A stretch of 29,333 nucleotides of DNA from Escherichia coli (GTDB lineage: Bacteria; Pseudomonadota; Gammaproteobacteria; Enterobacterales; Enterobacteriaceae): the NCBI RefSeq assembly GCF_003334815.1, contig NZ_QOWO01000044.1, one strand, 5' to 3'. Position 1 is the first letter of the stretch, and every line of letters begins with the position of its first letter. The notes beneath the pieces were generated by a model. The model made no database searches and had not been told where the DNA came from. It saw nothing but the letters and a program-made list of their open reading frames with translations. Positions 1 through 3,836 of the stretch are shown here, piece after piece. Position numbers and translations under genes: made by a program.

Positions 1-77
1 ACCATTTGATCATATGACAAGATGTGTATCTACCTTAACTTAATGATTTTGATAAAAATCATTAGGGGATTCATCAG
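1..77 (-). mobile_element. IS10 outside-end terminal fragment; element body lies left of the window, terminus at about 77
   Basis: Reverse complement of 1..77 reads CTGATGAATCCCCTAATGATTTTTATCAAAATCATTAAGTTAAGGTAGATACACATCTTGTCATATGATCAAATGGT, which I recognise as the IS10 (Tn10) outside end including the terminal inverted repeat. Recalled from memory, not searched. Confidence 0.8.
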
Positions 78-79
78 CA

Positions 80-1402
80 TTATGTGGTCACTGGGGACAA
101 TCGCCGCGTATTTCTGAACTCGCAGAACAAAATAAAATTATTGCTTATAACTACCCACAAGGTGTACTTACACAAACCATACGCGCCGCCGCAGCCCACC
201 AGCCTGGTATTATTAGTGATATTGGCATCGGGACATTTGTCGATCCACGCCAGCAAGGCGGCAAACTGAATGAAGTCACTAAAGAAGACCTGATTAAACT
301 GGTCGAGTTTGATAACAAAGAATATCTCTATTACAAAGCGATTGCGCCAGATATTGCCTTCATTCGCGCTACCACCTGCGACAGTGAAGGCTACGCCACT
401 TTTGAAGATGAGGTGATGTATCTCGACGCATTGGTTATTGCCCAGGCGGTGCACAATAACGGCGGTATTGTGATGATGCAGGTGCAGAAAATGGTTAAGA
501 AAGCCACGCTGCATCCTAAATCTGTCCGTATTCCGGGTTATCTGGTGGATATTGTGGTGGTCGATCCGGATCAAACCCAACTGTATGGCGGTGCACCGGT
601 TAACCGCTTTATTTCTGGTGACTTCACCCTTGATGACAGTACCAAACTTAGCCTGCCCCTAAACCAACGTAAATTAGTTGCGCGGCGCGCATTATTCGAA
701 ATGCGTAAAGGCGCGGTGGGGAATGTCGGCGTCGGTATTGCTGACGGCATTGGCCTGGTCGCCCGAGAAGAAGGTTGTGCTGATGACTTTATTCTGACGG
801 TAGAAACAGGTCCGATTGGCGGAATTACTTCACAGGGGATCGCCTTTGGCGCGAACGTGAATACCCGTGCCATTCTGGATATGACGTCCCAGTTTGATTT
901 TTATCACGGTGGCGGTCTGGATGTTTGTTATTTGAGTTTTGCTGAAGTCGACCAGCACGGTAACGTCGGCGTGCATAAATTCAATGGTAAAATCATGGGC
1001 ACCGGTGGATTTATTGATATCAGTGCCACTTCGAAGAAAATCATTTTCTGCGGCACATTAACTGCGGGCAGTTTAAAAACAGAAATTACCGACGGCAAAT
1101 TAAATATCGTCCAGGAAGGACGGGTGAAGAAATTTATTCGGGAACTACCGGAAATTACTTTCAGCGGAAAAATCGCTCTCGAGCGAGGGCTGGATGTTCG
1201 TTATATCACTGAGCGCTCAGTATTCACGCTGAAAGAAGACGGCCTGCATTTAATCGAAATCGCCCCTGGCGTCGATTTACAAAAAGATATTCTCGACAAA
1301 ATGGATTTCACCCCAGTGATTTCGCCAGAACTCAAACTGATGGACGAAAGATTATTTATCGATGCGGCGATGGGTTTTGTCCTGCCTGAAGCGGCTCATT
1401 AA
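80..1402 (+). CDS. ydiF: Acetate/acyl-CoA:CoA-transferase YdiF, 5'-truncated; the reading frame is open from the IS10 junction and the native N-terminus is missing
   Basis: Frame 2 translates continuously from 80 (LCGHWGQSPRISELAEQNKIIAYNYPQGV...) into the 413..1402 ORF. An in-frame stop at 41..43 and the IS10 sequence lie upstream, so there is no native start. Family I CoA-transferase-like sequence. Confidence 0.85.
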   Translation, partial: LCGHWGQSPRISELAEQNKIIAYNYPQGVLTQTIRAAAAHQPGIISDIGIGTFVDPRQQGGKLNEVTKEDLIKLVEFDNKEYLYYKAIAPDIAFIRATTCDSEGYATFEDEVMYLDALVIAQAVHNNGGIVMMQVQKMVKKATLHPKSVRIPGYLVDIVVVDPDQTQLYGGAPVNRFISGDFTLDDSTKLSLPLNQRKLVARRALFEMRKGAVGNVGVGIADGIGLVAREEGCADDFILTVETGPIGGITSQGIAFGANVNTRAILDMTSQFDFYHGGGLDVCYLSFAEVDQHGNVGVHKFNGKIMGTGGFIDISATSKKIIFCGTLTAGSLKTEITDGKLNIVQEGRVKKFIRELPEITFSGKIALERGLDVRYITERSVFTLKEDGLHLIEIAPGVDLQKDILDKMDFTPVISPELKLMDERLFIDAAMGFVLPEAAH

Positions 1403-1415
1403 CAGGAGTATAATG

Positions 1416-2567
1416 ATGGATTTTTCTTTAACTGAAGAACAAGAACTGCTGCTGGCCAGTATTCGCGAACTGATTACGACTAACTTTCCGGAAGAGTATT
1501 TCCGCACCTGCGATCAAAACGGGACATATCCGCGTGAGTTTATGCGGGCGCTGGCGGATAACGGTATTTCCATGCTTGGCGTGCCGGAAGAATTTGGTGG
1601 TATCCCTGCGGATTACGTCACCCAAATGCTGGCGCTGATGGAAGTGTCAAAATGCGGTGCTCCGGCATTTTTAATTACCAACGGTCAATGTATTCACAGT
1701 ATGCGCCGTTTCGGTTCTGCAGAGCAGCTACGTAAAACGGCAGAGAGCACCCTGGAAACGGGTGATCCCGCCTATGCCCTGGCGTTGACGGAACCAGGTG
1801 CTGGCTCAGATAACAACAGTGCCACTACCACTTACACGCGTAAAAACGGCAAGGTCTACATCAACGGACAAAAAACCTTTATTACCGGTGCGAAAGAGTA
1901 CCCGTATATGCTGGTGCTGGCGCGCGATCCGCAACCGAAAGATCCCAAAAAAGCCTTCACCCTGTGGTGGGTCGACTCCAGTAAGCCCGGCATTAAGATT
2001 AACCCGCTGCATAAAATCGGCTGGCATATGCTCAGCACCTGCGAAGTCTATCTCGACAACGTGGAGGTTGAAGAGAGCGACATGGTGGGCGAAGAAGGAA
2101 TGGGTTTCCTCAATGTGATGTACAACTTTGAGATGGAGCGCCTGATCAACGCCGCGCGCAGCACCGGCTTTGCCGAATGCGCCTTTGAAGATGCCGCCCG
2201 CTATGCCAACCAACGTATCGCTTTTGGTAAGCCCATTGGTCATAACCAGATGATCCAGGAAAAACTGGCGCTGATGGCGATTAAGATCGACAACATGCGC
2301 AACATGGTGCTGAAAGTGGCATGGCAAGCCGATCAGCATCAGTCACTGCGCACCAGCGCGGCGCTGGCAAAACTGTACTGTGCACGTACCGCAATGGAAG
2401 TCATTGATGATGCGATTCAAATCATGGGCGGTCTGGGCTATACCGATGAGGCGCGCGTCTCCCGCTTCTGGCGTGATGTCCGTTGTGAACGTATCGGCGG
2501 CGGTACAGACGAAATTATGATTTACGTAGCAGGTCGGCAGATCCTGAAAGACTATCAGAACAAATAA
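1416..2567 (+). CDS. ydiO: Acyl-CoA dehydrogenase family protein (383 aa)
   Basis: ORF 1362..2567; start chosen at ATG 1416 (MDFSLTEEQ), 7 nt after AGGAG at 1404..1408. Acyl-CoA dehydrogenase-like C-terminal region (QIMGGLGYT...RDVRCERIGGGTDEIM). Confidence 0.9.
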   Translation: MDFSLTEEQELLLASIRELITTNFPEEYFRTCDQNGTYPREFMRALADNGISMLGVPEEFGGIPADYVTQMLALMEVSKCGAPAFLITNGQCIHSMRRFGSAEQLRKTAESTLETGDPAYALALTEPGAGSDNNSATTTYTRKNGKVYINGQKTFITGAKEYPYMLVLARDPQPKDPKKAFTLWWVDSSKPGIKINPLHKIGWHMLSTCEVYLDNVEVEESDMVGEEGMGFLNVMYNFEMERLINAARSTGFAECAFEDAARYANQRIAFGKPIGHNQMIQEKLALMAIKIDNMRNMVLKVAWQADQHQSLRTSAALAKLYCARTAMEVIDDAIQIMGGLGYTDEARVSRFWRDVRCERIGGGTDEIMIYVAGRQILKDYQNK

Positions 2568-2573
2568 TCTGCA

Positions 2574-2606
2574 GGCGGCGCAGCTTCTTAACAAACTGCG
2601 CCGCCA
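2574..2606. terminator. Hairpin between convergent ydiO and ydiP, probably a bidirectional terminator
   Basis: Inverted repeat GGCGGCGCAG (2574..2583) / CTGCGCCGCC (2597..2606) with a 13-nt loop, lying between two convergent stop codons. Confidence 0.5.
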
Positions 2607-2609
2607 GAT

Positions 2610-3521
2610 TTATCCAACAAGACTTACCGGTTGAGGAAATTCAGATAGGATTTCTTGTTCCGCAAAACAGTTTTTAAATTGTCTACGGTAATCGCTGGGC
2701 GAACAACCGACATGGCGCAAAAACAGTTTGGCAAAGTGATCGACATTTTCATAACCCACACGCCAGGAGATCTCTGCCTGTGATAATTCAGTATTAGTGA
2801 GTGACCATTTTGCTTCCGTCATACGCCGTTGAATAACATAGTTAATAGGGGAAATACGATACTCTTTGGTAAATTCATGGCAAATATAACTGACGCTGGC
2901 ACGAAATTTTTTCGATAACTGTTCTAAAGTGATTTTTTCGCGATAATTATTATTCAGATAGAAAAGAATATCTTTTATCAGAACATCTTTTTTAATATAC
3001 CCCTGCTCCGAACGATAAGCATTTTTAAAATTTTCGTAGTAAAGAATGGCTAACGTATAGGCAAATGCATCCCATAACGAAGATGTTTGGCTATTTTTAC
3101 TTTGCGGCAAAATCACACTTAGCTCATTAAATAAGGTTTTTATGACTTCTTTTCCCTGCCCCGCGGCAATTACCGGACAAGAATGCGGTTGCAGTAGCTG
3201 ATTTTCCTCAGCCCCCTGAAACTGAAAGCCGTACAGCGCACAGGTACACGTCGTTGCCGGATCGTTAACGTCAGAGGCCACCGCATGCAGCCTGCCGCGT
3301 TCTATCACCACAATGTCATCCGCATGTGCGACATATAACGAAGAATCGATGGTAAACCTTGCAACCCCTTTCTTGACGTAAATCAACTCGGTTTCATTGT
3401 CATGAACGTGATGTCCGGACTCCCATTTTGGATCATCGCTAAATGCAAAACGTGAAAGCCGTGGCGTTTTACCGGCGACAAACAGCGTTTCACTGGCGTT
3501 ATCAAAACAGCGTTGATACAT
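2610..3521 (-). CDS. ydiP: AraC/XylS-family transcriptional regulator (303 aa)
   Basis: ORF track; C-terminal AraC-type HTH region (ITLEQLSKKFRASVSYICHEF...SPINYVIQRRMTEAKW...). Confidence 0.9.
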   Translation of the reverse strand: MYQRCFDNASETLFVAGKTPRLSRFAFSDDPKWESGHHVHDNETELIYVKKGVARFTIDSSLYVAHADDIVVIERGRLHAVASDVNDPATTCTCALYGFQFQGAEENQLLQPHSCPVIAAGQGKEVIKTLFNELSVILPQSKNSQTSSLWDAFAYTLAILYYENFKNAYRSEQGYIKKDVLIKDILFYLNNNYREKITLEQLSKKFRASVSYICHEFTKEYRISPINYVIQRRMTEAKWSLTNTELSQAEISWRVGYENVDHFAKLFLRHVGCSPSDYRRQFKNCFAEQEILSEFPQPVSLVG

Positions 3522-3618
3522 GACAACCTCCCTATTCCATGAGCAAGCAAAAACAATATATGCCGGATAAAATACGGCGTGTATTGCGGTTATACAACCG
3601 CGTTTAGCGAGAGCTAAA

Positions 3619-3721
3619 CAAGATTATTTACACTGAATGCAAGATTGTACGGTCATGGAATAACTATATTGCCGCAAATTGCACTTTTGTTTTAGCGATC
3701 GCATTTTTTTTGCAAGATTGT
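3619..3721. promoter_or_regulatory. Divergent ydiP / ydiQRST-fadK promoter region with three copies of a CAAGATT(G/A)T motif
   Basis: CAAGATTAT at 3619..3627, CAAGATTGT at 3640..3648 and 3713..3721; the last two sit inside identical 11-mers TGCAAGATTGT (3638..3648, 3711..3721). Confidence 0.3.
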
Positions 3722-3836
3722 TGGCAAGGAAAACAGCTTGCTCCGTCGAAAACCCCGCACCGCTATCGCACACTATTTTCAGGCCATTTTTACCTTCCAT
3801 CGGAGATGGTTCCGTATGCGACTCACAGGAGAAATC

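Follow-up and report, generated by a model that had tools for sequence, protein, structure and literature searches.

A lone IS10 insertion very probably splits ydiF in a K-12-like Escherichia coli

Introduction

The stretch of Escherichia coli DNA analysed here (29,333 nucleotides, contig NZ_QOWO01000044.1 of assembly GCF_003334815.1; hereafter the window) opens on the end of an IS10 element that is joined to a ydiF gene lacking its first codons. Taken as a whole, this arrangement is very probably best explained by a lone IS10 insertion, by which ydiF is split into a null allele and the DNA downstream may come under pOUT-derived transcription. The ydiF::IS10 allele represents an ordinary knock-out by insertion, in a gene that is dispensable, and events of this kind are already known. 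In a first-pass annotation of the same DNA, ydiF had been described as decapitated by IS10. The interruption itself, after about 91 codons, is upheld by the present analysis, but the gene has been split by a simple insertion of 1.3 kb and nothing has been deleted.

YdiF is a fused two-domain family I acyl-CoA:acetate/3-ketoacid CoA-transferase with determined structures (PDB 2AHU/2AHV/2AHW). The gene is followed by ydiO, and both have been treated as one operon, ydiFO (bioRxiv 10.1101/2020.04.27.065417). The sections below describe the IS10 end and the ydiF remnant in the window, the reciprocal junction that carries the 5' half of the gene, a second IS10 and the differences from K-12, and the transcription that may reach ydiO.

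Results

An IS10 outside end at the left edge of the window

Bases 1-77 of the window (minus strand) constitute the outside end of an IS10 of the IS10-Left type, read from IS10 bp 77 down to bp 1, the window position being 78-n for IS10 bp n. The R100 sequence used for comparison holds two reference copies within Tn10, one at 10001-11329, proximal to a gltS-like gene, and one at 2183-3511, proximal to tetD in the tetC/tetD region; these reference copies encode 402-aa ORFs, i.e., a DDE transposase. All 77 window bases are identical to the last 77 bp (11253-11329) of the 1329-bp gltS-proximal copy, whereas the tetD-proximal copy shows four mismatches over the same stretch. The gltS/jemA-proximal copy of Tn10 is taken here to be IS10-Left. 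Two copies in strain ET12567, annotated as "IS4-like element ISVsa5 family", are likewise 100% identical to window 1-77.

The IS10 sequence at the left end of the window runs to ...GGGGATTCATCAG, the reverse complement of the IS10 terminus CTGATGAATCCCC, and this terminal outside-end sequence is directly joined to target DNA. The end that abuts the ydiF remnant is thus the outside, transposase-start-proximal one, and the transposase gene would begin at IS10 bp 108 on the minus strand, to the left of the window edge. Fifteen positions distinguish the reference copies of IS10-Left and IS10-Right, and all of them lie outside bp 108-409.

The ydiF remnant and the truncation point

Following the element, a 3' fragment of ydiF comprising codons 92-531 and the stop codon occupies 80-1402 on the plus strand, as delimited by a phmmer comparison with 2AHU_A, the RefSeq annotation of K-12 and a start-codon scan. 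The 440 residues of this frame, which is free of stop codons, align over their whole length with residues 92-531 of 2AHU_A (phmmer, E 3e-294); both the 2AHU_A chain (531 aa) and K-12 ydiF (531 codons) have the full length. Compared with K-12 MG1655, the window is 99.97% identical over 77-29180, starting from the first base of ydiF codon 91. This codon (GCA) is re-formed at 77-79, and because its first base is the terminal G of IS10, the chromosomal DNA is considered to begin at base 78.

These observations agree with the earlier description of a ydiF frame that is open up to the IS10 junction and that lacks about 90 residues of a 531-aa protein. Aligning 80..1402 with full-length YdiF, which had been suggested as a check on that description, places the truncation after codon 91, and the full-length homologues do not start near the first residue of the frame in the window.

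The remnant differs by five substitutions from the O157 protein of 2AHU and by two (L125I and A471S) from that of K-12. The Glu333 codon (GAA, 803-805; residue 333 by alignment to 2AHU) is retained; this glutamate was reportedly identified as the catalytic residue of YdiF by Rangarajan and co-workers in 2005. The N-terminal CoA_trans domain of Pfam spans residues 16-252 of full YdiF, and the cut therefore falls inside a domain and not in a linker. The frame in the window starts at residue 92, so 76 residues (16-91) of this domain are cut off from it and the complete N-terminal domain is not present on one polypeptide.

Start codons and translation of the remnant

Read in the ydiF frame, the IS10 end contains four stop codons (41-43, 44-46, 50-52 and 53-55), and consequently no IS-encoded protein can fuse into ydiF. 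A start-codon scan of the same frame found no ATG, GTG or TTG between 56 and 412, so that the first 333 nt of the remnant frame hold neither a start codon nor a ribosome-binding site; the first-pass annotation had been right to describe a 440-codon frame without start context. The first in-frame starts are GTG413 and ATG416 (413-418, plus strand), which correspond to Val203 and Met204, and translation in this frame can begin no earlier than residue 203/204.

Shine-Dalgarno pairing, calculated as the duplex energy between the 17 nt upstream of a start codon and the anti-Shine-Dalgarno sequence, is weak at GTG413 and ATG416 (-1.0 and -1.5 kcal/mol, respectively), as compared with -4.3 kcal/mol at the native ydiF start and -6.9 kcal/mol at that of ydiO. 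The best candidates for an internal restart are ATG473/476, in the Met223/224 region, with -6.3 kcal/mol. A protein made by such a restart would be missing 203 or more N-terminal residues of YdiF, and with them the greater part of the N-terminal domain, and would presumably be inactive as a CoA-transferase. A gene call in a public collection gives a 328-aa product from ATG416 (window 413-1402; 473-1459 in the public contig) that has no Pfam hit on record. This automatic call is better treated as a pseudogene fragment, and ydiF is here better regarded as an IS10-split pseudogene than as a CoA-transferase.

The reciprocal junction and the 5' half of ydiF

The hypothesis of a simple insertion was checked by predicting its products and by subsequent exact sequence look-up. 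The 328-aa product led to contig CBDBYT010000055.1 (29,353 bp, assembly GCA_965212685.1) and to a Logan contig of run SRR3823859, with which the window is identical over 4402 and 4355 bases, respectively. The Logan assembly is independent and has the same IS10/ydiF junction, in a contig that is recorded for seven samples. For the other side of the insertion, a 104-aa chimera was predicted, consisting of YdiF residues 1-93 followed by AERSPHNFPKT, 11 residues that are read from the inside end of IS10-Left. Exact look-up found this chimera only at the end of CBDBYT010000004.1, a 181-kb contig of the same assembly (GCA_965212685.1) as the public counterpart of the window, and found no record of the IS10-Right version.

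The end of CBDBYT010000004.1 carries ydiN-ydiB-aroD, the ydiF promoter region and ydiF codons 1-93, followed by the inside end of IS10. Its 3280 chromosomal bases that were compared are identical to K-12, and its IS10 part (548 bp, 3281-3828 of the stretch compared) is the IS10-Left inside end except for two N. The inside end CTGAGAGATCCCC... thus abuts ydiF codon 94, on the other side of the same target. The left junction reads ...GAAATGGG CATTATGTG|CTGAGAGATCCCC or, in longer form, ...GAAATGGGCATTATGTG|CTGAGAGATCCCC..., running on into the 548 bp of inside end, while the one in the window, on the right, reads GGGGATTCATCAG|CATTATGTG GTCACTGG or, in longer form, GGGGATTCATCAG|CATTATGTGGTCAC. 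The 9 bp CATTATGTG, which belong to ydiF codons 91-94, occur at both junctions and as a single copy in K-12; comparison of both junctions with K-12 identifies the copy at window 78-86 as the right-hand copy of a target-site duplication. The two contigs break within the repeat, showing 134 bp of the outside end (120 bp of identity to IS10-Left) and 548 bp of the inside end (546 of 548 bp identical). They are probably adjacent in the genome, as the matching 9-bp duplication suggests.

The N-terminal part of ydiF, its promoter and its ribosome-binding site, which the first-pass annotation took to have been replaced by IS10, are therefore intact at the end of CBDBYT010000004.1 and have been displaced by 1.3 kb. 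An IS10-mediated adjacent deletion or inversion, by which the 5' part and the promoter would have been lost or moved and ydiF truly decapitated, is accordingly very unlikely. Seen within the window alone, such an event would fit the lack of anything upstream of codon 91, and IS10/Tn10 is known to promote both kinds of rearrangement (review PMC9330008), but the same assembly contains the 5' part, attached to the other (inside) end of IS10, aroD-ydiB-ydiN lie upstream of it in the wild-type arrangement, and the same 9 bp flank both junctions where a deletion or inversion would have left non-matching flanks.

The window is bounded on both sides by IS10 fragments, a signature of short-read draft assembly, and it looks "decapitated" because a multi-copy repeat such as IS10 interrupts the contigs of a draft assembly. 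The same circumstances, i.e., a short-read draft contig with repeats at both ends and public contigs with N where IS10 copies differ, might suggest a chimeric contig in which an IS10 end was wrongly joined to a ydiF that is intact in the organism. Such an artefact is, however, extremely improbable, as the separate Logan assembly of SRR3823859 and the seven samples share the junction, a reciprocal junction with an exact 9-bp duplication exists, and the data are explained without any intact ydiF product bearing the private substitutions of the strain.

The proposed insertion event

The preferred reading thus remains that of a simple insertion. As a mechanism, it is proposed that ydiF of a K-12-like E. 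coli received one 1329-bp IS10 of the IS10-Left type by transposition, and that this would have duplicated the 9-bp target CATTATGTG in ydiF codons 91-94. The gene would have been split with the inside end of IS10 toward its 5' part and the outside end toward its 3' part. A single conservative transposition with no deletion is indicated because the 9-bp direct repeat is present only once in K-12. The native promoter and ribosome-binding site would now drive only a 104-residue peptide, and the 3' 440 codons would be blocked upstream by the IS10 stop codons and have no start for 333 nt. On this anatomy, full-length YdiF presumably cannot be made from the split gene, which would make the allele a null. 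The inactivation that had been considered probable on first inspection is supported. Insertion of a whole Tn10 was considered and rejected, as Tn10 would present outside ends on both sides and the junctions here comprise one inside and one outside end.

The target itself is not a preferred one. The IS10 hotspot consensus, which is taken here to be NGCTNAGCN (GCTNAGC) and to be preferred but not obligatory, is matched by CATTATGTG at two of its six specified positions, this count depending on the consensus as assumed.

A second IS10 and differences from K-12

The right edge of the window (29176-29333) lies in a second IS10, of which the inside end CTGAGAGATCCCC is present; its 158 bases are all identical to the R100 IS10-Left copy. 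Oriented like the left copy, it is located in the espL1/arpB pseudogene, which was already frameshifted. An ORF at 27798-29210 runs into this element and ends in ...SPERSPHNFPKT. The 9 bp that precede the second IS10 are GCCAAAGCC, and since these differ from CATTATGTG, the two IS10 ends of the window are attributed to two separate insertions; a common origin in a single target duplication, or in a circular molecule, was rejected for the differing flanks. The IS10 copies of ET12567, PM4 and CUPF09 that lie about 320 bp further on, beside yniD, represent different events.

IS10-Left is classically the poorly active copy of Tn10. Despite this, at least two insertions of the IS10-Left sequence type are seen here. 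In the public contigs, N occurs at positions that distinguish IS10-Left from IS10-Right, and this points to more than one IS10 variant in the genome.

Between the two elements, window 77-29180 is collinear with MG1655 from ydiF to espL1/arpB, with seven substitutions and one single-base indel. The indel lies in a run of T at 24170. The alignment shows another gap at 29176, which stems from the alignment edge at the right IS10 junction. The T-run difference coincides with the annotation of rpmI as "frameshifted" in the MG1655 assembly CP032667, and as ET12567 and NCTC9100 have the same sequence as the window here, CP032667 is most likely the one in error. Two elements found by Rfam, a pheST Phe leader at 23372-23496 (minus strand, 75 bits) and the sRNA STnc540 at 19373-19531 (minus strand, 67 bits) downstream of btuC, are as expected for this chromosomal region.

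NCTC9100, a natural isolate, has three of the seven substitutions as well (17516, 27932 and 28422, i.e., T88M in btuD and two changes in espL1), from which it is concluded that the source is a natural K-12-like relative. A K-12 laboratory derivative with a mutator history, which the seven mostly non-synonymous differences might suggest, was rejected on the same count. The other four (179, 1217, 5037 and 10778) are private, i.e., unseen in the best-matching complete genomes, and all are transversions; they cause L125I and A471S in ydiF and S139R in ydiR, and are synonymous at G185 of ppsA. Two of these four fall in the 1.3-kb ydiF remnant, as against about 0.18 expected under an even distribution (post hoc P ~0.014), and this clustering could reflect relaxed constraint after inactivation or chance.

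Transcription toward ydiO

At 1-32 on the plus strand, the window contains the 3' 32 nt of RNA-OUT, corresponding to positions 39-70 of the RF00240 model, as recognized from the full match in an ET12567 IS10 copy with an identical outside end (97.3 bits, E 2.3e-20), in which RNA-OUT runs from IS10 bp 115 to 46 toward the outside end. A scan of the window at the Rfam gathering threshold did not report RNA-OUT, 32 of whose 70 nt lie inside the window. The outside end faces the gene, with RNA-OUT on the coding strand of ydiF'-ydiO, and given the plus-strand position of the RNA-OUT 3' part at 1-32, pOUT is considered to point into ydiF'-ydiO. The promoter itself is located to the left of the window, and N obscures part of its hexamers in the public contig; over the pOUT region (IS10 bp 116-200), the reference copies of IS10-Left and IS10-Right do not differ.

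The next intact gene, ydiO, encodes an acyl-CoA dehydrogenase and is assigned to 1403-2567 on the plus strand from the K-12 annotation, its Acyl-CoA_dh Pfam domains and its Shine-Dalgarno energy. It is co-directional with pOUT, starts 13 nt past the ydiF stop codon (ATG1416) and has a Shine-Dalgarno sequence of its own (CAGGAG, 1403-1408; -6.9 kcal/mol). A consensus scan of the plus strand at 78-1415 flagged one weak promoter-like site in the ydiF remnant, fewer than expected by chance, and a terminator scan of the same stretch found no convincing intrinsic terminator. As the simple consensus scan also flagged no promoter in the ET12567 IS10 copy, and so missed pOUT, an internal ydiO promoter is neither supported nor excluded by it.

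According to the reviews PMC9330008 and PMC4574204, which cite Simons et al. 1983, some pOUT transcripts extend into adjacent genes (about 10% of lacUV5 strength). For transcripts from the ydiF promoter to reach the remnant and ydiO, they would have to cross IS10, and low constitutive transcription of both would most likely come from pOUT. It is plausible, from this arrangement, that ydiO is expressed mainly by pOUT read-through; a possible dependence of ydiO on transcripts from IS10 had also been raised in the first-pass annotation.

Rho-dependent polarity across the approximately 1.3 kb of untranslated remnant may limit the transcription that reaches ydiO. Outward transcription from Tn10 insertions in the his operon was reportedly found to be Rho-sensitive by Ciampi, Schmid and Roth in 1982. 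The remnant contains C-rich, G-poor stretches at about 121-200 (C/G 2.4) and 601-680 (C/G 1.8), which are compatible with Rho loading sites but carry little weight, the C/G profile being an unvalidated predictor.

Discussion

The ydiF::IS10 allele matters little beyond annotation, except that the expression of ydiO may be altered. It should be considered when the ydiFO-ydiQRST-fadK anaerobic fatty-acid cluster is studied in this strain. It also serves as a reminder that a gene that appears headless at the edge of a draft contig may be interrupted by a repeat and have its other half at the edge of another contig.

The dispensability of ydiF is illustrated by the Keio collection, in which ydiF mutants are viable, and by interruptions of the gene in other strains, i.e., by IS10 in ET12567 and by IS1A in strains EC06 and AR_0114; these independent interruptions are consistent with a dispensable gene. 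They may also be read as signs of a selected regulatory allele, retained for the constitutive ydiO expression that pOUT would give (perhaps together with that of a C-terminal part of YdiF), or for an advantage of losing YdiF. Such retention is very improbable. It would fit the co-directional orientation of pOUT and ydiF'-ydiO, the recurrence of interruptions, with IS10 in the same orientation in ET12567, the better growth of a ydiF null mutant with putrescine and glutamate reported in a preprint (bioRxiv 10.1101/2020.04.27.065417), and the location in the 1.3-kb remnant of two private substitutions out of four. The junction (window 1-160), however, is absent from all 5426 complete E. coli genomes, and three or four ydiF hits among thousands of genomes do not represent an enrichment. 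The ET12567 insertion (within 31020-33953 of the stretch compared) lies at a near-consensus hotspot, its target AACTTAGCC matching five of the six specified positions of the consensus assumed above, in a strain with about 39 IS10 matches, and chance explains it. A selected rewiring, in which pOUT would uncouple ydiO from its native regulation while YdiF is removed, with the IS10 and IS1 hits elsewhere as marks of recurrence, is given very little credence. If true, it would imply recurrent selection against YdiF or for constitutive expression of ydiO, the acyl-CoA dehydrogenase of an anaerobic fatty-acid pathway. No reason is seen to invoke selection for ydiF::IS10, and an ordinary insertion remains the preferred explanation.

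Literature searches returned nothing relevant on IS10 together with ydiF, and nothing for the run and assembly accessions. Several known systems share parts of the arrangement. With IS10-Left of the R100 Tn10 (IS4 family; named ISVsa5 family by NCBI), the elements at the window edges share 100% identity over 77 bp of the outside and 158 bp of the inside end, as well as the 9-bp target duplication and an intact RNA-OUT sequence. Unlike IS10-Left within Tn10, the element in ydiF is solitary, and its target is a poor match to the GCTNAGC hotspot.

Activation of genes by pOUT, as described by Simons et al. (1983) and for acrEF in Salmonella (Olliver et al. 2005, cited by PMC9330008 and PMC4574204), involves the same geometry as found here, namely an outside end next to the gene with RNA-OUT on the same strand. 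The present case differs from these in that 1.3 kb of untranslated remnant precedes the next intact gene. With respect to the YdiF structures 2AHU/2AHV/2AHW, residues 92-531 including Glu333 are kept in the window, and residues 1-91 lie across IS10.

A further parallel is the ydiF::IS10 of ET12567 (CP045457), which resembles that of the window in the gene affected, the element family, the orientation and the 9-bp duplication; here as well, the outside end is directed toward the 3' part of ydiF and ydiO. The two differ in the insertion point, the ET12567 insertion being an independent event 567 bp further downstream, with AACTTAGCC at window 645-653, near codon 280, as its target, and in the element, since the IS10 copy in ydiF of ET12567 has an inside end of the IS10-Right type with six mismatches to the inside end in the window.
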